Shown here: piece by piece, positions 3,118 to 26,377 of the stretch
Layout of the letters: every line of letters begins with the position of its first letter
Position numbering within the stretch: the stretch's first letter is position 1
NCBI GenBank assembly: GCA_030668875.1
Contig: DAOVER010000030.1
Span: 1 to 32,000 of the forward strand
Direction: 5' to 3'
DNA: 32,000 nt
Source of the DNA: Candidatus Heimdallarchaeota archaeon
GTDB taxonomy: Archaea; Asgardarchaeota; Heimdallarchaeia; Heimdallarchaeales; Heimdallarchaeaceae
Translations under genes and position numbers: made by a program
Notes under the pieces: generated by a model
Told to the model about the DNA's origin: nothing
The model's input: the letters and a program-made list of their open reading frames with translations, nothing else
Database searches by the model: none

Positions 3118-4053
3118 ATGAAAATAGGTTTACAGGTTCCAAATTTTACCTTCTTGGGAGGAAAGGAAACCTTTGGTCAAGATATTAAGGATATCGCTTC
3201 TCAAGCTGATAAAGCTGGCTTTTATAGTCTATGGGTTATGGATCATTTCTTTCAAATTGGTAGTGAAGGAAGCATTCTTCTAGGTCCTGCTGAAGACGAT
3301 ATGTATGATGGTTATTCTATTCTTAATTATCTTTCAGCTTTAACCAAGAATGTTAAACTTGGTACACTTGTTTCTGGCAATATTTTTCATCATCCTGGTA
3401 TGCTAATTAAAGCTGTTACTACTCTAGATGTTCTCTCTAAAGGTCGAGCTTATCTCGGAATTGGTGCAGGTTGGTTTGAAAGAGAATCTGTTGGTTATGG
3501 TATACCTTTCTATGATTGGACTACTCGTTTTGAGATGTTAGAGGAGACTTTACAGATAGCTAAACTTATGTGGTCAGAGAACAATGGTGAGGAATTCAAA
3601 GGAAAACATTATCATCTTATGGAAACTATGTGTCATCCTCAACCTATTCAGAACCATCCACCCATCTTGATAGGGGGAATGGGTCCTAAAAAGACTCTTC
3701 GATTAGTTGCAAAGTACGCTGATTCTGCTAACTTATTCTTTGGTCGTGGAACTGATAAAGTAGAAAATGCTCTCAAAATACTTAGGGAACACTGTGAAAC
3801 TGAAAACAGACCTTTTGATGATATTGAGATAACTGCTTTAGGTAGTGTTTTTCTAGACCAACCAGACTGTCCTGATGTTAATCCATATGGTGGAAAAAGC
3901 TTCAAAACTGCTAATGATATTATTGCTGTTACAAAAGAACTAGCTGAGATGGGTGTAGACCATGTTATTTTCAATATGAGAAACCCACTTTCAGACCAAG
4001 AACCTCTCAAGATATTCGAAGAAGCAATCATCCCTGCAGTTTCAGAATTTTGA
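3118..4053 (+). CDS. LLM-class (luciferase-like) probable F420-dependent oxidoreductase, Rv1855c-like
   Basis: MKIGLQVPNF, GFYSLWVMDHFFQI, VKLGTLVSG..HHPGML.K...LDVLSKGRAYLGIGAGW, PPILIGGMG.KKTLRLVAKYAD; start moved to ATG 3118. Confidence 0.9.
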   Translation: MKIGLQVPNFTFLGGKETFGQDIKDIASQADKAGFYSLWVMDHFFQIGSEGSILLGPAEDDMYDGYSILNYLSALTKNVKLGTLVSGNIFHHPGMLIKAVTTLDVLSKGRAYLGIGAGWFERESVGYGIPFYDWTTRFEMLEETLQIAKLMWSENNGEEFKGKHYHLMETMCHPQPIQNHPPILIGGMGPKKTLRLVAKYADSANLFFGRGTDKVENALKILREHCETENRPFDDIEITALGSVFLDQPDCPDVNPYGGKSFKTANDIIAVTKELAEMGVDHVIFNMRNPLSDQEPLKIFEEAIIPAVSEF

Positions 4054-19306: not shown

Positions 19307-21950
19307 TTATTTTTTAGGTTTCTTAATTAGTTTGACAATAGTAAAAACTCCCCAGATTGATGCTACTGCTCCTGCACCAACGAGTGTACCCCAACTTTGG
19401 AAAAATGAAACAAATGATGATGGAATTGTTAAGTCTATAGTAAAATTGTAACAATGGTTGTTTCCTGCATTATCATAAGCTACAACCGTGATGTTGTGTG
19501 GACCACTATCTTGTTGAATACTAGTGTCCCAGTTATATTCGTAGATAGTATCTTCTTGAGGTGTTGTAAGAGTAGCAATCAATTGAAGATTATCAATAAC
19601 CTCAACCTTTTGTATACCACTTCCAATATCAGAAGCATTGATTTTGATGTTTGTTATACCAATCGATGGAGAGGTTGCGAGATCAACTATTACCACGTTT
19701 GGTTCTATGTCATCTATTATTTCGTATGAATAAAATGCTCCTGAATTGTCATCTACTCTTAGATTCCCTTTTGTATCAAGTAATTCAAACCTAAACTGAA
19801 CGTTTGTTCCATAGTCAAAAGCTGGTAGTGTAACCTCATAATTACCCATATACGGAATACAAGGTAATCCGACCCAGTTTGATTCATACAGGTAGAAAAG
19901 GTTAATCTCTTCAATTTCTGATAGTAAATCTTCTGCAAAGATATCCATCTTAACTTTATCGTAGTAGGTGGGGGTATCCAAAATTTCCCACGAGAGTAAT
20001 TCTGGTCCATTTGTGTCTTTTACAAAGTTCATATCATCAAACATTACTGAAACATAACTACCTGTGCCATATGCTGCTGCAACTAATTCTACCCTAGTTA
20101 GATTCCAAAGTTCATCTCCAAAAGCATTAGAAGCATCTTTACTAATATCTCGAACTAAATTATTCCATACTCCAGTTTGGTTAAATTGTTTAACCAAATA
20201 GCATTGGGTGCTACTTGTATTTGTAAAAGATGCTACTTGCCCAGCTCCAAGAATGTAGTGGATATTATAACCTCCTTCAAATGTTAATTTTATAGTGGAA
20301 AAGGAATTCGTTACTGCATCAATAGAGTTCAATTTCCACCAAAAATCTGTATAGAGATTGTCTCTGACGTAGAACATCAGATTTCTATATAGTGAAACTT
20401 CGCCATAATTTTCAAAGGATGTGAGATTAGCTCCCCAAATTCTGCTATGGCTGTCATCTGTTGAAGATATGTGTGTTTCAGTAGAGCTAGTACTCCAGCT
20501 TGTAATAGGAACAGAAGGAGTTCTATACCATTCTTCTTCAAAAGAAGGATCAGCTAAAGGATAAGTGTTGATTTGTAAATCATCGATTAATAAATTAACT
20601 GTGGAATTTGCATAGTATCCAGAATTAGTAATCAAACTAAGACTAGTAATAACTTGATTACTTAAATTAAAGGCTTCGTAAAGCTCAAACATATCAATGT
20701 GAAAATGATTCCAAGCCCCTTTTACGCTAGATAAAGAGGTGTTCAAGTAATAATACTCGTAAGTTGGTTGGGAGTAATTTGACCAAGGAATTTCATCTTG
20801 ACCACTTCCTAAAAACCAGTAAAAATAGCTTTGATAACTTTCATTTTGCCCTTGTAAATAGAAATATGCATATTGTTCAGTACCACCGTTTAAAACATCT
20901 GTATATTTCCAATCAAAGTCTATCTCCACCATTCCAGGTGATGAAGGATAGTATCCCCTCCTAAACGTTTCATAGGATGACATAGAGTAAGAAATAGAAC
21001 TTGATGAACTTGAACTTGCGTAGTAAGAATTTGCTGTCAAATTCAAAGATTTATCTCCTTCTATTGAATCATCACTTAATCCAATGTACCCTCTTCCTTC
21101 TTTGTTACCTGCCCAACTTGATCCTGTCCCTGTTTCAAAATCTCCATTATCAGCTAAATAGTTGAAGGAAGAATCATTTTGCATACTAACGTCGTCTATA
21201 ACTAGTTCAGTGAAACCAGTACCATGATACGGTGAAGTTGAGTAGAAATATATGTAATATACATATACTGTAGAAGAAACACTTCCAAAAGCTTGTTCAA
21301 AATCATTTGTAACATTTCTTTGTGCTAAATGTTGCCAACTAGCTGCAGGTCTAATCATATTGAAATATGCTCGATAAGTGTCATTCGTCATCGAAAAGGA
21401 AGATGCTGATAAATAATAGTTTATAGTATACCATTGAAAAATAGCTGGATCAAATATTCTTAGTCTCGCATAAGAACTACCTCCAATAGTTATATCTGGA
21501 TTAGCAACTGTATTCCACCAAAAATCTAAAGATATATTCTCAGCTAAATTCGGTAAAAAAGGTTGACTATAATATCCCCAAATTATGTAATTAGTTGCAC
21601 CACTAATTTTTGTTCCCTCACACGAAGAGTACCCTGAATATAAACCATTATGTGTTAGTGATTGATAGTTAAGTTCACTGTAAGAGTTGCTGCTAATAGA
21701 ATGGTCCATACGTTCAGGTAGGCCTTCAGGAGTTGACTCTTCAAAGTTCCCATTAGGAATAATATTCGTCCATAATTGTTCTTCTCCTCCAGCTCCTACT
21801 GCTGCAAAAATTTGATTTATTTTACTCTGCTGGGGAGAATTGTTTGTTGTGGATATTTGTTTACCTAATACTAGATCTGAAGTAACTGTTGAAATAAAAA
21901 AAAATCGTAAGTAGGAAAACTGCTAAAATAGTTTTACTTTTCTTTTTCAT
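19307..21950 (-). pseudogene. About 880-aa surface protein with three CBM4/9-like domains, Ig-like domain(s) and TM anchor; +1 frameshift in signal-peptide T9 tract
   Basis: ATG 21950 (GGCGAT SD) MKKKSKTILAVFLLTIFF; a T8 instead of T9 at 21896-21904 restores ISTVTSDLVLG...NIIPNGNFEE..RMDHS, in frame with ORF 19307..21709; repeats start NGNFE/NGDFE/DPSFE; tail TM plus KLIKKPKK. Confidence 0.85.
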
Positions 21951-22140
21951 TATATCGCCTTTTATTGTATTTAATTGGATAATTACCTTTTTAAGATAAT
22001 CATCTAAAATATATAAAGTTTCTTTGTAACTGTTTTAAATCATGAAAATTAGTTTTTAAGAAAAAAAAGGAGGAAAAATATTATATTATATTATTTTTCA
22101 TTTCGATTCACTTATGACATGAATTGTGTACAAATTCTTT

Positions 22141-22280
22141 AGAAGTGCCTGAGCACATCATGGAGACGCCACATCCCCTCCTACACCGCCCACATCTTCT
22201 TTCAAAGGTGCTTACGGTTCGCTTTTGGATGTTCGTTGGATGTAGCCCCGAGGATCATCATGTAATTGATGCATAGCTAC
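22141..22280. ncRNA. Candidate structured RNA (unidentified), strand probably minus
   Basis: 22141-22260 is 63/120 GC against about 30% background; on the minus strand GCUACAUCC/GGAUGUGGC form a 9-bp stem with a G.U pair; TATA-like TTATAAAT at about 22290-22297. Confidence 0.35.
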
Positions 22281-22577
22281 AATCCTTAAATTTATAATCT
22301 ACACTACCCTACTTAAACTCCAAAAAAATGTACAAAAAGTATGTTGTAAACAGATGAAATGAGCCTTAAATTTGAAGTTTTTGGTTTTCAAAAGTTTATA
22401 ATTGTATTAACTGTTAATCTCAATAGATTAAAAACACAAGATAAATAAAGCATAAAGAGAAAAAAAAGCAGGAAGTCTCTGTGCAAATTGTGTTTTAAGA
22501 GACAAAGGAATTTCGTCTCGAAATTTCACAATCTCCAAGAGATTAGGGGAGGATTAATCCTCTCCCACTCCTTCTAA

Positions 22578-22628
22578 TTATGGTGGCCAAAATTCTGGCT
22601 CGTCAGGGTCTCCACCGGGACTAAACAT
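22578..22628 (-). CDS. Micro-ORF MFSPGGDPDEPEFWPP (16 aa)
   Basis: Perfect SD AAGGAGGTG (22646-22638) 9 nt before ATG; Pro/Gly/Asp codons explain the local GC spike; followed by hairpins and a T-tract. Confidence 0.5.
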   Translation of the reverse strand: MFSPGGDPDEPEFWPP

Positions 22629-22750
22629 CTTTCCATGCACCTCCTTATGTCACTATTGTTTGGAAGACAACAAGGAGGGATCTTCTATGTCAAAAAGGAC
22701 GAAACTTGGCTTTTTACCCCTCTTCAGTCTGTAAGATGCTGTTTTAGCTG

Positions 22751-22768
22751 TCGGGTATTTTTACCCGA
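22751..22768. promoter_or_regulatory. Palindromic operator candidate upstream of the tandem-Lrp gene promoter
   Basis: TCGGGTA-TTTT-TACCCGA (7-4-7 perfect); TATA TTAAATA at 22794-22800, about 30 nt before ATG 22825; partial repeat TTTTTACCC at 22701. Confidence 0.55.
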
Positions 22769-22824
22769 TACTCCATCATATGAAGGAAAATCGTTAAATA
22801 AAACAAAAAACTCTATAGATTGCC

Positions 22825-24312
22825 ATGTCTGGCATTACAAATCAGAATCTTGTAATTAGATTGGAGGAAGCGGAAAAAATCTTGGAGGATGATTATACTC
22901 AATTCCATAGTATTATAGTTGACAATTATATCCAGTATGAATCTCCATTGTGGGACATAGCTTGCTTTCTGACCTTCTATGAACTTTCACCTAAATCAGT
23001 AAAAAGGCAGAAATGGGTGGAATACTGGTTCAAATTCAGTAAAACAAGAAGATACAAGAATCTAGTTTACATGGTTCCAGCCAGCTATGTTGCATTATCT
23101 GATTTGCGTAAAGCCAAAGACTTTTTCGTCGATCTTTTAGAACAAAGCAGAAAATCAGTGAAAGAGTTAGCTTGGGAAACTTTCCTATCTATTTTCTATC
23201 AATTCAGAGCATCTGTCAAACCCTCATTCAATAAAAGAGAATTTACAGTGTTTAAGACAATTCTAGATAGACAAACAATGGTTTCAAGCGAACTTAAAGA
23301 TTACTTAGATATTGATCTCTCCAATATTTCAAAATATAAAACTATCGTAGAATACAAGAGAGTCTTACATCAAGGTATATCATTAAATTATCACAAACTT
23401 GATCTTTCAGTATATGGTTTGATGTTCGAATACCCTCTGACTAAGGATATTGACCTTTACTCTGAATTGTCAAATAGTGTGTTTTTTCATTCTTTGTATA
23501 CTGGAAATGTTGGATGCAGATCCGCTCTCTCATATTTTGTTGCTCCTAGACATAAAAAGGTGGAAGAAGACTTCAATAAATTATCAAAGAGAATAAGTAA
23601 AAATAATCATATCCCTTACTCTCGTATTTTACGGTTTCTAACAGAAACCAGATTAAAATCATTTAATTGTGGTATTTACGATTTTAAGAATGGACATTGG
23701 ACACTCAATCCTCAAAATCTTCAGTTTACGCTTCAAGATTATGATTCAAGATTAATAGAAACAGTACCCATCCTAACACGTGATTTTGAGAACTGTGATT
23801 ATGAAAAACTAAAATTGAATAAAACGGGTCTTGATATCTTAAATCACATACTAGCAAATATGCATCTGTCGATAAGGGATATAGTCAGTGATCTTGGATT
23901 AACAGAAAAGGAAGTAAAGAAACAAGTTGATAATCTTCGAAAAAACGAGTTGTACAAATTAAGATACAACCCCTTATTCGTGTTTGGCTTAAAACATATT
24001 ATCATATTTCTTCATGATTCTCATAAAAATCAGCATGAGATCCATAAGACTCTATCCTTTTTCCCAGAAGTATATAGTGAACAATATGTATCTAAAGGAA
24101 AAAATGGTCTTTACATTGTTCTTAGGATCCCTTATGAGCTTGTAGTTGATGCAATTGAGTCTCTTACTAACTTTTTCAAAGGAAAAATAGAGAATCTTTT
24201 CATTGTTGACCAAATGATTACAACAAGATATCAGTTGCCTGTAGATAGATATGAAACAGTTTTTCAGGAGTGGAAATACTCTTCTGAAGATATTTTGGGA
24301 GTTGATTTTTGA
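22825..24312 (+). CDS. Tandem Lrp/AsnC-like winged-helix regulator with an extra N-terminal helical domain
   Basis: HTH1 NKREFTVFKTILDRQTMVSSELKDYLDIDLSNISKY with linker LNYHKLDL; HTH2 LNKTGLDILNHILANMHLSIRDIVSDLGLTEKEVKKQVDNLRKN with linker NPLFVFGL; each followed by an alpha/beta domain. Confidence 0.75.
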   Translation: MSGITNQNLVIRLEEAEKILEDDYTQFHSIIVDNYIQYESPLWDIACFLTFYELSPKSVKRQKWVEYWFKFSKTRRYKNLVYMVPASYVALSDLRKAKDFFVDLLEQSRKSVKELAWETFLSIFYQFRASVKPSFNKREFTVFKTILDRQTMVSSELKDYLDIDLSNISKYKTIVEYKRVLHQGISLNYHKLDLSVYGLMFEYPLTKDIDLYSELSNSVFFHSLYTGNVGCRSALSYFVAPRHKKVEEDFNKLSKRISKNNHIPYSRILRFLTETRLKSFNCGIYDFKNGHWTLNPQNLQFTLQDYDSRLIETVPILTRDFENCDYEKLKLNKTGLDILNHILANMHLSIRDIVSDLGLTEKEVKKQVDNLRKNELYKLRYNPLFVFGLKHIIIFLHDSHKNQHEIHKTLSFFPEVYSEQYVSKGKNGLYIVLRIPYELVVDAIESLTNFFKGKIENLFIVDQMITTRYQLPVDRYETVFQEWKYSSEDILGVDF

Positions 24313-25766
24313 TGAATGAAATCTATTTGACATTTTATCAATTTGTACCATTAATAGAAATGACTTACTCACCAGAACTTCGAGATCACTTGAAATTCTT
24401 AGCTGAAGGAAACACTGCAGCTAAAACCATTGAAAAGAGTTATAAAAACAAAAAGATAAGTGAAACGTCAGAAGACATCAAAACTGCTTTTCTTCCAACT
24501 TACAGCGATTTGAGATGGTCTTGGTATGATGATGGTTATAACTATTACAGAAATTTTCGGAGTTTCATTTTTCAAAAGCAACCTCTGAGACCACTTGTTC
24601 CGCTAATATCTAGAACAATAAAATGGAAGGGAACGCCAACAATAGGTTCTAAAATTGTTTCCACAAAAAAAGCTGAATTATCTCCAATTCTAATTGGTCG
24701 CTCGATAAAAAAAATAGTCCTCACGAAAACTGGTAAGAATCTTCTAGACTTTGAATCGAATCTGAAAATATTGCTCCGTTTCTGCAATAAGAGTAAAAAC
24801 AAAGAGAAAATGTGTTTTCTAAATGGAGTTTTCAAAGAAACAGGAGCTATAAGTATTCAAGATTCAGATATTATAACAATCATTGAGACAGATCCACAAA
24901 CGTATAAGAATATTAATTTTACAAATCAGAAAATAAGTCGCATATATTATGGTGGAATAGAGATCTTAGTACACGATATGAAACAAGTTTATATTATTTA
25001 CAAAGAAAAACCACCAAAAATACTAAGGAAGAGAGTAGAGAAAATCGTTTCTTTGTTTTTCAGTTTGAAATTCCTTATTCAACGTGCAACATATTTATTG
25101 AGCACTGATTTATTGGAAAATATGGGGATTAGGGCTGTCTCAAACATTATGGAATACTTTCTATCATCCTTAAATCCGTCAATCTATTCTTCTCAAAATA
25201 TACCAAATCTGCTACCAAAACATTACCAAAGAATGCTATTCAAATCACTTTGTAGAAAGATGAACCTTCTAAATAAATTTTCGTATCTTTTTGAAAAAAT
25301 CAAGAAAAAAATACTCGATATGCCTGCTTATGAAGCAAGTTTCTTTTTCAAGAAGAAGAATATATTTACAAACGATCTGCGAGACAAAGTTATTCTTACT
25401 CTAGCTGAAGAGCCAGAACCAGAATTAACGGAGAAGGAAAGATTGATGTTGGACTTCTTTGTTTCTCAATATAAGAAAGAACTAGAAAATGATGCACTTT
25501 ATGATTTCAAAATCCGACGAAAGAAAACTTTAGGTTCTATGTCTAGAAATTTTATCAGGAAGAACATTAACCATTGGTTAGTGGTTAAGGGTTTTCCAAC
25601 CAATACTTTTACAGATAACGAGTTGAAGAAAAACCCTGTAGCAGATGTATTAAGTAGGCTAAATAAAAAGGACTTGATACTTATTGACCAAATGGAAAAA
25701 GGAAAAACAGATTTTCTTCTAAACCTAAATGACGAGAACAAATTTATAGTAAAATTATTGCTGTGA
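24312..25766 (+). CDS. Unknown protein with a probable C-terminal winged-helix domain, coupled to the upstream regulator
   Basis: TGATG overlap at 24310-24314; C-terminal ELTEKERLMLDFF...PVADVLSRLNKKDLILIDQMEKGKTDFLLNL resembles a wHTH; N-terminal ~370 aa not recognised. Confidence 0.7.
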   Translation: MNEIYLTFYQFVPLIEMTYSPELRDHLKFLAEGNTAAKTIEKSYKNKKISETSEDIKTAFLPTYSDLRWSWYDDGYNYYRNFRSFIFQKQPLRPLVPLISRTIKWKGTPTIGSKIVSTKKAELSPILIGRSIKKIVLTKTGKNLLDFESNLKILLRFCNKSKNKEKMCFLNGVFKETGAISIQDSDIITIIETDPQTYKNINFTNQKISRIYYGGIEILVHDMKQVYIIYKEKPPKILRKRVEKIVSLFFSLKFLIQRATYLLSTDLLENMGIRAVSNIMEYFLSSLNPSIYSSQNIPNLLPKHYQRMLFKSLCRKMNLLNKFSYLFEKIKKKILDMPAYEASFFFKKKNIFTNDLRDKVILTLAEEPEPELTEKERLMLDFFVSQYKKELENDALYDFKIRRKKTLGSMSRNFIRKNINHWLVVKGFPTNTFTDNELKKNPVADVLSRLNKKDLILIDQMEKGKTDFLLNLNDENKFIVKLLL

Positions 25767-26077
25767 AGTATACTGTTTCTTACCTATTACTGTTAATTAT
25801 CATTACTTCGTTTTTATGGTAATTTCTCAGTGTTTTTTTATAATTTTGAGACAAAAAAATCTTCTTTATAATACCATTCATTCTCTGTAAATCAATAACG
25901 TGATTAAATGTTTGATATAACCCCAGTAGTTTATAGTCACAATTTCGTGACATGGAGGGAGTCATGATGATTATGGATAGTACTGGAAGAACTATATTAA
26001 AGAGAGTTTCATTTTTTTTTCAAAATGTGGAGCAATGAAGGTAGGTTGAGTTGATTGATTTAGAATGGAGAATGAAA

Positions 26078-26377
26078 ATGGGCAAAAGTTATCAGTTTTA
26101 CTGTAAAGAATGCGAATTAAATATGATATTATATGAAGGTATCAAGTACAAAACAGATGATACTTCAATAAACTATTATTGCTTTAAATGTAACAAAATA
26201 TCTTATCATGATACTTGTTTAGATTGTGGAGATAAGCTATATTACTCTATTGAGATACCAAAGGAAAAGCGAAAGATGCACAATTCTTCTGATCAACCTA
26301 TTGAAATCAAACTAGCGTGTCCAAAATGTCGATCTAAAGAAACCATTCTTACAAAAATAGGTGAATGGGTGCTTTGA
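26078..26377 (+). CDS. Small zinc-ribbon protein (four CxxC pairs)
   Basis: CKEC, CFKC, CLDC, CPKC; GGAG 7 nt before ATG 26078. Confidence 0.8.
   Translation: MGKSYQFYCKECELNMILYEGIKYKTDDTSINYYCFKCNKISYHDTCLDCGDKLYYSIEIPKEKRKMHNSSDQPIEIKLACPKCRSKETILTKIGEWVL

Follow-up and report, generated by a model that had tools for sequence, protein, structure and literature searches.

A conserved micro-ORF with a structured RNA tail beside two winged-helix protein genes in Heimdallarchaeaceae

The subject of this report is a very small gene in a stretch of 32,000 nucleotides (nt) from a Candidatus Heimdallarchaeota archaeon (assembly GCA_030668875.1, contig DAOVER010000030.1, positions 1 to 32,000, forward strand), which is called the window below. 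Comparative evidence indicates that a frame of 16 codons and a TAA stop on its minus strand (the micro-open reading frame, or micro-ORF; 22578 to 22628) is a genuine small gene, conserved in evolution and followed by a structured RNA tail, and that a peptide/RNA component tied to two divergently encoded winged-helix proteins is real. The most economical reading, which we adopt tentatively and which had been raised in a preliminary description of this DNA, is that the micro-protein serves as a partner or ligand of those proteins.

The micro-ORF and its conservation

The micro-ORF (ATG at 22628 to 22626, TAA at 22580 to 22578) lies in a gap of 1.1 kb between the gene for a surface protein of 800 amino acids (aa) on the minus strand and that for a 495-aa protein on the plus strand. 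It encodes MFSPGGDPDEPEFWPP, a peptide with an isoelectric point (pI) of about 4 and 31% proline, without a hydrophobic stretch or membrane segment; these values bear out the earlier characterization of the peptide as acidic, proline-rich and not hydrophobic. The window is AT-rich (about 33% GC) and has a bump in GC content across 22450 to 22750. An Rfam search of the window gave no matches at the gathering threshold and only chance-level ones (E above 2) at a permissive setting, and no tRNA genes were found in it.

A DNA search of 40 related genomes showed that 22425 to 22830 is kept at 73 to 89% in four genomes of the same genus. The frame, its ATG, its stop and the last ten residues are retained in all five genomes (the window's own and these four), and variation in the last 11 codons affects seven sites, six of them third codon positions. 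A loose pattern of the last six codons matched once in each of the five genomes and in none of 41 others of the order. Pattern scans of the whole genome-contig collection recovered the four known Heimdallarchaeota metagenome-assembled genomes and three bacterial chance matches, and those of metagenome contigs only five chance matches, one of them antisense to a UbiX-like gene.

Outside the genus, homologues of the 495-aa protein that are 29 to 40% identical, from other species and genera of the family, have a divergent micro-ORF led by a Shine-Dalgarno (SD) sequence at an equal distance, with peptides such as MKGPIEFPPDDPEPWPP, MDPEEWLPDDPSPWPP and MKSDNWICPPNGDPNDPEPLPVP. Further loci were added from contigs retrieved by protein searches. 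A profile search with the 485-aa protein encoded next to the 495-aa protein returned 42 cluster representatives among 1.84 billion, and the contigs of its three most distant members (one of 32% GC, two of 45 to 46% GC) all carry a divergent micro-ORF, encoding MWPPEDPSPIPPW, MNWPGDPSPVPPWTF and MPGDPWPIPPWTPV. Altogether, 18 distinct peptides from 21 loci, on Heimdallarchaeial and more distant Asgard-like contigs, share the core D-P-x-P-hydrophobic-P-P. The ORFs span 13 to 24 codons and at every locus are divergent from the 495-aa homologue, at a spacing of 120 to 245 nt; none is among the genes called on the retrieved contigs. The preliminary description had offered its idea of a joint regulatory system for rejection if homologous regulators proved to have no conserved micro-ORF beside them. 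The idea stands up to this check: such regulators do have one, led by an SD sequence, similar in motif and likewise divergent.

Two groups of loci could be compared codon by codon. Within the 8-codon core, variable sites at codon positions 1, 2 and 3 number 0, 0 and 5 in group 1 and 1, 1 and 6 in group 2, and selection therefore acts on the amino acids or on the choice of tRNAs.

Translation signals ahead of the micro-ORF

The SD sequence AAGGAGGTG (22638 to 22646, minus strand) stands 9 nt ahead of the ATG and, as first described, is a full 9-nt match at good spacing. Most family members retain GGAGGTG(A), while four have the shorter GAGGTGA or GGTG(A/G). Upstream of 1926 long ORFs in the assembly, GGAGGTG occurs twice and the 8-nt match AGGAGGTG not at all, and the SD sequence of the micro-ORF is the strongest in the assembly. 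The archaeal anti-SD sequence is generally conserved, and because the 3' tail of 16S rRNA was looked for and not found in the assembly, complementarity is judged from this general knowledge.

On the same strand, an anti-SD arm (CCTCCTTG-T-TGTC, 22666 to 22678) can pair with 22640 to 22651. The stem that the preliminary description had drawn from these arms exists (7 bp and a G.U pair, then a bulge of one base and 4 further bp), and its coordinates for the micro-ORF, the SD sequence and the stem all proved exact on re-reading. The stem is the minimum free energy (MFE) structure of the 71-nt 5' region, at -17.4 kcal/mol, with a z score of -1.83 and 8 of 200 dinucleotide shuffles equaling it. If transcribed, it would dominate the predicted ensemble, with a probability of about 0 that the SD sequence is unpaired in a 241-nt fold.

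From this stem the micro-ORF had been read as a translationally locked mRNA, similar to type I toxin mRNAs or attenuators, in which the hidden SD sequence would be opened by a signal. We regard this as very improbable, although there is some comparative evidence for the pairing: it is kept in the genomes G010 and G002 (G, C and L numbers are our handles for genomes, contigs and loci), one G.U pair of the stem becomes G-C in G016 and G010, and short anti-SD complements recur in G011, G015, G019 and L081, that of L081 as an independent local hairpin. Against this, the z score is only -1.83, and G013 has lost the pairing, which G001, G012a, G005 and L082 also lack, with the SD sequence itself maintained. 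The MFE fold of G016 leaves the SD sequence unsequestered, an 8-bp pairing still being possible there; in group 2 the homologous arm position reads CCTCAT, GCTCAT or GCTTAT, with pairing in only about half of the loci. The arm also lies directly downstream, within about 26 nt, of the best TATA-like box (22682 to 22698), so a start some 26 nt past that box would leave it outside the RNA, and the arm may be upstream of the transcription start. In a fold without the arm, the SD sequence pairs with the 3'-terminal CUUCC instead. The resemblance to type I toxins fares no better: the peptides of those toxins are small, hydrophobic and membrane-active, while the present one is acidic and has no membrane segment, and no antisense RNA gene is evident. 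The pairing is thus lineage-specific and not under consistent selection; only marginally above chance, the SD-hiding stem would be at most a lineage-specific modulator. A lock is possible in the window's lineage but is not a family trait.

A structured RNA behind the micro-ORF

Eleven nucleotides past the stop codon, the minus strand forms a hairpin, H1 (GGGAGAGGA / TTAA / TCCTCCCC, 22546 to 22566). A post-stop hairpin is present at nearly all loci, 9 to 19 nt past the stop, and its arms differ between groups with their complementarity kept (GAGGAG/CTCCTC, GGGAAC/GTTCCC, GAAGGT/ACCTTC). It is followed by a structured 3' domain (22468 to 22545) of nested helices, P1 (22538 to 22543 with 22475 to 22480) and P2 and P3 (inside 22499 to 22518), with a closing helix P0 (22568 to 22571 with 22471 to 22474). 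A T8 run (22460 to 22467), which has a counterpart at the matching place in orthologues, is probably where transcription of the small RNA terminates. Groups 1 and 2 share the order hairpin, 80-nt domain, CUUCC and T-run; distant members have a single hairpin and T-run only.

The 126-nt stretch behind the ORF has a folding z score of -4.3. For nine sequences, which represent only about three independent lineages, RNAalifold gave a consensus of five helices with 25 base pairs in all. Of its cells 93.7% are paired, against 46 to 63% in slid controls, and at 10 of the pairs both partners have changed; 0 to 2 of 500 shuffles reached the observed values. A covariance model of the domain, R1, detected a single copy in each of nine genomes, in every case behind the micro-ORF. 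When 46 genomes of the order were scanned with it, no loci but the nine used for training scored, four weak matches (E 0.002 to 0.008) being taken as noise. The long structured 3' untranslated region that the preliminary description had reported is thus confirmed by both its folding energy and a covariation-supported 25-bp consensus; the domain as a defined covarying element was absent from that account.

Two features of the domain bear on what it might do. Its core is identical in four genomes in which the ORF and the proteins have diverged, which suggests sequence-specific recognition. Its four co-varying segments, which read ATCTCT / GAGAC / GTCTCT / AGAGAC in one group and AGTTCCT / AGGAA / GTTCCT / AGGAACT in the other, permit either the nested fold, the only one scored, or local hairpins of which the last is followed by the U-run.

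Such alternative folds, together with a closing helix that begins 7 nt past the stop and so would be blocked by a terminating ribosome, recall a leader peptide with an attenuator, in which the place that a ribosome holds near the end of the ORF would select one of the folds and so decide whether transcription stops at the U-run or runs on into downstream cargo. The next gene beyond the micro-ORF is indeed on the same strand in seven of eight contexts. We nevertheless judge attenuation improbable. In G016 and G010 the gene beyond is convergent and there is no cargo, yet the RNA is still 85 to 89% identical. The window has a repeat element and a gap of 870 nt between the RNA and the next gene, and elsewhere the cargo varies by locus (a cas operon, zinc-ribbon genes, an aminotransferase, GNAT). 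Since the RNA is conserved whatever follows it, its role appears to be independent of the downstream gene and it is not a cis leader. In addition, cas6 genes have a TATA-like box of their own about 25 nt ahead of the ATG, and the distant members have only their single hairpin and T-run. Archaeal termination requires just a T-run, and to our knowledge translation-coupled attenuation has not been demonstrated in archaea.

Also to be weighed is the view that there is no minus-strand gene here, the conservation being that of promoter or operator DNA, or of a long plus-strand leader with an upstream ORF (uORF) for the 495-aa gene. The region does sit in a divergent control region, and the 3' domain folds nearly as well on the plus strand (z -4.1). 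This view is nonetheless scarcely credible. The third-position variation tracks the minus-strand frame; the plus-strand ORF at 22635 to 22859 is not kept in relatives; and a conserved TATA-like box 25 nt ahead of the start codon of the 495-aa gene suggests that the regulator mRNA has no leader. The minus strand of the 3' domain also has 24 G.U cells and 94% paired cells against 86% on the opposite strand, a comparison biased by the structure having been derived on the minus strand.

The module proteins and the shared control region

The 495-aa protein (22825 to 24312, plus strand) consists of an N-terminal helical domain and two winged helix-turn-helix (wHTH) plus RAM (Lrp/AsnC-like) modules. 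In its predicted structure (mean predicted local distance difference test score, pLDDT, 88.8) a wHTH is followed by a beta-alpha-beta-beta-alpha-beta RAM unit, twice over, in agreement with the tandem Lrp-like neighbor seen at the outset. The best Foldseek match of the model was the siroheme decarboxylase NirDL (PDB 4ch7; E 1e-6), followed by archaeal Lrp/AsnC proteins at a probability of 1.00; the Pfam family HTH_24 scored 20.4 bits, below its cut-off of 21.9. The family counts 28 proteins in 5.8 billion, and all of those with a named source are from Heimdallarchaeota or Heimdallarchaeaceae.

The gene for the 485-aa protein (24309 to 25766, plus strand) starts within an overlap with the stop of the 495-aa gene and follows it at the orthologous and many paralogous loci. 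The protein is basic (pI 9.65, net charge +29). Its model (pLDDT 85.5) matches Orc/Cdc6 and MarR winged helices at Z 8 to 9 in the C-terminal part, which accords with the wHTH assigned to the second regulator before. For its N-terminal 365 residues no convincing match was obtained in PDB Foldseek, VIA-wide, Atlas shape or Atlas features, and no similarity was found between the 495-aa and 485-aa proteins. Neither regulator had a Pfam match to the tetratricopeptide repeat (TPR) family; an NCBIfam search gave nothing meaningful, and PADLOC only sub-threshold wHTH similarity to Csa3/CARF regulators.

The micro-ORF keeps company with the 485-aa gene. Among loci at which both sides are visible, the two are present together at 16 and absent together at 8; at one locus the 485-aa gene is present without a micro-ORF, a TnpB element occupying the site, and at one other, in G011, the micro-ORF stands without the 485-aa gene and the 3' domain is lost too. 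As these loci are related, the counts are an association and not statistics. At the TnpB site (L057:13-1704, JGI contig Ga0311295_1535462, from a close relative; regulator 89% identical), a TnpB/Cas12f-like gene with a 3' RNA region replaces the micro-ORF directly upstream of the regulator. One contig (G042:C37, comprising L053, L047 and L039) has three tandem 495-aa paralogues with neither the 485-aa partner nor a micro-ORF.

A 108-aa zinc-ribbon protein (26051 to 26377, plus strand) is likely to be a fourth member of the module. Its family (about 105 aa, CxxC...CPxC) accompanies the module: in group 1 the gene comes after the 485-aa gene, and in group 2 a single homologous gene or a pair of them lies behind the micro-ORF RNA (as at L062:8187-8956; 33% identity, E 4e-14).

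The region between the divergent genes has three conserved elements. A box (TTTTTGACATAGAAGAT, 22682 to 22698, minus strand), conserved in groups 1 and 2, is the TATA-like box of the micro-ORF side mentioned above and a candidate promoter or operator. A palindrome (TCGGGTA-N4-TACCCGA, 22751 to 22768) is a candidate for the operator to which the winged-helix proteins of the module would bind; it is kept at 9 of the 11 loci of the two groups, with arms lengthened to 10 bp in group 2. The third is a TATA-like box (22793 to 22803, plus strand) in a conserved TTTATTTAA/TTTATTAAT block; since it lies about 25 nt ahead of the ATG of the 495-aa gene, that mRNA is probably leaderless. The palindrome and the peptide motif each occur a single time in the whole 3.2-Mb assembly, and the circuit therefore looks self-contained.

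Genomic context in relatives and the link to type I CRISPR-Cas loci

Of eight lineages, four have the module directly next to type I-B or I-D cas operons or a CRISPR array, a recurrent link that, like the unique palindrome, was absent from the preliminary description. A complete type I-B operon (Cas6, Cas8b, Cas7, Cas5, Cas3, Cas4, Cas1 and Cas2) is present in G044 and G012:C8, separated from the regulators by the micro-ORF; of its products, Cas6, Cas8b and Cas3 were assigned by Pfam, Cas7 by homologues, and Cas5, Cas4, Cas1 and Cas2 from sequence and position. An array and a second 495-aa paralogue are found at the far end in G044. The micro-ORF of L078 is opposite a type I-D operon (Csc2). 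At L080 and L081 the pair of module genes runs directly into cas6 or into an operon containing Csc2, with an array beyond the micro-ORF in L080. Regulator paralogues in G040 and G045 are 6 to 13 kb from cas7. From these arrangements, the module may be a new CRISPR-associated regulator pair. The type I-B locus flanked on both sides by 495-aa paralogues can be seen at L059:8574-19899 and L060 (G044:C1, about 944.5 to 964.3 kb) and at L061 (G012:C8); its repeat is GTTTAAGCTGAACTAAGTAGTGTGAAAAT.

The window has no cas genes, and Cas7/DevR, Csc2 and Cas1 were searched for and not found in its 92%-complete assembly, so the module there is an orphan. The sole CRISPR-like array of that assembly (contig C40:2897-3240) has five copies of a 37-nt repeat, GTTGCAAT...ATGCAAC. 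Searches for a creA-like degenerate repeat gave no signal: within G044 and G012:C8, the best matches between the local repeats and the intergenic regions were equaled by 21 to 34% of shuffles; for the array tail of L080 against the control region, 247 of 300 shuffles equaled the match; and the window region against the repeats of its own assembly and of G044 gave short matches only, without a shuffle comparison. Repeats of the creA type can be too degenerate to detect in this way.

Two further observations concern the other flank of the micro-ORF. The repeat element there (22112 to 22350) is about 238 bp long and relatively GC-rich, with copies on contigs C92, C39, C47, C95 and C3 of the assembly and up to 13 copies per same-genus genome (77 to 96% identity, often at contig ends). 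It resembles a mobile repeat of the miniature inverted-repeat transposable element type; terminal inverted repeats were looked for in it and none were found. The 800-aa surface protein ORF (19307 to 21950 region, minus strand) has Big_7 and DUF3047-like domains and starts without a signal peptide, while a signal-peptide-like 29-aa ORF (21861 to 21950) lies upstream in another frame, near a T9 tract (21896 to 21904); this offset could reflect a frameshift, phase variation or an assembly error.

A model for the micro-protein

We propose, with rather less than even confidence, that the micro-protein is a partner or ligand of the module's proteins. Positions 22460 to 22700 of the minus strand are a small independent gene, and under this model its RNA of about 200 to 240 nt would be made up of an exceptionally strong SD sequence, a translated 16-codon ORF, a post-stop hairpin, a structured 3' domain and a U-run terminator. 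Its product would be an acidic micro-protein of the polyproline-II type, produced in large amounts, and the gene forms the third obligatory part of a narrowly distributed Asgard accessory module, mainly of Heimdallarchaeaceae, next to the divergent 495-aa protein, the translationally coupled basic 485-aa partner and, usually, the small zinc-ribbon protein. The winged-helix proteins would occupy the unique palindrome, which lies in the 200-bp control region common to the two arms, and govern the transcription of both. The micro-protein would bind back to the module proteins, most likely to the basic 485-aa partner with which the micro-ORF co-occurs, and alter their binding to DNA (or RNA) in a feedback or ligand loop, one that in relatives would be wired to type I cas operons. 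The 3' domain would stabilize the RNA and may itself be bound by the module proteins. Of all this, the comparisons establish the gene and its codon-level selection, the structure of the RNA, the constant architecture and the co-occurrence; that the gene is transcribed, that the operator is used and that the peptide binds and acts is proposed.

Several observations are consistent with this proposal. The acidic peptide and the basic 485-aa partner match in charge, the peptide core and its coding signature are conserved deeply across the family, and the divergent position is fixed; the co-occurrence with the 485-aa gene, the self-contained circuit and the predicted folds of the proteins point the same way. 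Others weigh against it. The usual ligands of RAM domains are amino acids rather than peptides. In the 495-aa protein, the conserved Trp-rich domain at the N-terminus is also retained by paralogues that have no micro-ORF and therefore gives no specific support for peptide binding. The peptide and the proteins diverge in matched groups, but linked genes co-diverge anyway, so this is not independent evidence. A peptide alone does not explain a 3' domain that is near-invariant in four genomes, for which the RNA may have a second role, and the loop is incomplete in the window's genome, where it has no identified output gene.

The ends of the peptides suggest a different use of the same RNA. In Pseudomonas, the "proline-codon toxin" CreT needs an SD sequence, a mini-ORF ending in Pro-Pro-stop and a hairpin (bioRxiv 10.64898/2026.06.02.729485), and CreT toxins depend on efficient translation signals, according to a further report (PMC8501985). 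A CreT-like RNA in the present module would load ribosomes by its strong SD sequence onto a micro-ORF with a slow, aIF5A-dependent end (PPD, DDP, WPP-stop, PPW), and PPD, DPP, PPW and DDP are EF-P/eIF5A-dependent pause motifs, eIF5A also helping termination (PMC5499558). The hairpin-stabilized RNA would trap ribosomes or report translation capacity; the divergent winged-helix proteins, not a CRISPR guide RNA, would restrain it; and growth would be arrested, or an addiction would arise by which the module and, in relatives, the neighboring cas genes are protected. All three parts that CreT needs are found here, and the SD sequence is the strongest in the genome, as efficient translation would require. 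The end is Pro-stop in 13 to 14 of the 18 peptides. Type I-B or I-D cas operons or an array stand beside the module in half of the eight lineages, and the module is self-contained, patchy and sometimes multi-copy, as addiction and defense modules are.

We consider such a ribosome-stalling RNA unlikely all the same. A strong SD sequence, a short ORF and a hairpin are also simply the architecture of any small gene. The peptide is conserved well past its Pro-Pro pair, and consecutive prolines are missing from the end of several members; in G005, G012b and G044, where there is no Pro-Pro, the pattern of alternating prolines plus an aromatic or hydrophobic residue is kept even so, as would be expected of a binding motif more than of a stall at Pro-Pro alone. 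In L076, on the minus strand some 200 nt ahead of the regulator, which starts at 4001, the usual stop is lost and the peptide is three residues longer, ending in PPIKL; a Pro-stop end is therefore not strictly required. The searches made revealed neither a creA-like degenerate repeat nor complementarity to the control region, and Cas7, Csc2 and Cas1 were not found in the window's genome. We know of no precedent for an RNA toxin restrained by two proteins of roughly 490 aa. By analogy with CreT one could also imagine a protein-controlled version in which the nascent D-P-x-P-hydrophobic-P-P sequence stalls ribosomes in an aIF5A- or proline-dependent manner and, with the 3' domain and the two winged-helix proteins, constitutes a new kind of module for addiction or sensing, by which type I CRISPR-Cas loci would be guarded or tuned, an idea that we regard as doubtful to the same degree.

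Relation to known systems

No description of this module was found in the literature searched, and on present comparative data it appears confined to Heimdallarchaeaceae and a few other Asgard-like contigs. Conserved micro-proteins demonstrably under selection are rarely found in uncultured archaea, and gene callers miss them; the present analysis defines a module of three to four parts, namely a micro-protein RNA, a tandem Lrp-like protein, a basic winged-helix protein and a zinc ribbon. A short synthesizable peptide and a unique operator make the question of its function directly testable.

If the micro-protein is a ligand, as we favor, the module would represent an archaeal peptide-regulator circuit of a new build. 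Rgg/SHP, ComR/XIP and the other RRNPP systems are peptide-regulator pairs of Firmicutes, and as in the present module a very short ORF is divergent from its regulator, the conserved or active part is at the peptide C-terminus, downstream targets vary and a genome can have several paralogous pairs. The RRNPP regulators, however, have TPR-type peptide-binding domains, whereas Lrp/AsnC-like and winged-helix domains are found here, and RRNPP peptides are hydrophobic, exported, processed and re-imported, whereas the present peptides are acidic and proline-rich and have no linked exporter or importer. The micro-protein MgrB feeds back on PhoQ, and the proposed loop would likewise have a small protein under the control of a regulator bind back to the regulatory system; MgrB, in contrast, is a membrane peptide that acts on a sensor kinase and has no sequence or structural relation to the present family. 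The 495-aa protein shares with NirDL the arrangement of two wHTH and RAM units in one chain, and archaeal Lrp structures match it too, but it has an extra N-terminal helical domain of 130 residues, an HTH_24 score below the cut-off, and no evidence for an enzymatic role.

Leader-peptide attenuators, among them trpL, pheL and hisL, and the uCC of AZIN1, a eukaryotic uORF with a PPW motif that is sensitive to eIF5A and polyamines, resemble the micro-ORF in being short and rich in one slow residue and in having a U-run; its presumably high translation and the alternative helices that its RNA may form would be further points in common. Attenuators have mutually exclusive terminator and antiterminator helices behind the leader ORF, and the structural genes that they regulate follow in one transcription unit. 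They differ from the micro-ORF in that no downstream gene is conserved in cis here and the element persists even with nothing after it. The PPW, PPD and DDP motifs of the present peptides match eIF5A pause sites (PMC5499558).

Closest in architecture are the CreT RNAs, the proline-codon toxin of the type I-F system of Pseudomonas aeruginosa (bioRxiv 10.64898/2026.06.02.729485) and the tRNA-sequestering RNAs of haloarchaeal type I-B systems (PMC8501985): a small RNA with a strong SD sequence, a very short ORF mostly ending in Pro-Pro-stop and a stabilizing hairpin, with relatives of the present module lying in or beside type I cas loci. In CreTA modules the Cascade complex of the type I cas operon represses CreT, a neighboring creA gene supplies one or more degenerate CRISPR repeats and a pseudo-spacer that partly complements the toxin promoter, and toxicity depends on consecutive rare or proline codons instead of the peptide; in the present family Pro-Pro is found in most members but not in all. 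Unlike CreT, the micro-ORF has 13 to 24 codons and an amino acid sequence that is conserved and under selection, no creA guide was found for it and no Cascade genes were found in the window's genome, its control is proposed to be by two large winged-helix proteins, and its RNA has an extra structured domain of 80 nt. Should the RNA nevertheless prove to stall ribosomes, the principle of the proline-codon toxin would reach the archaea and be tied to aIF5A biology in the closest relatives of eukaryotes.

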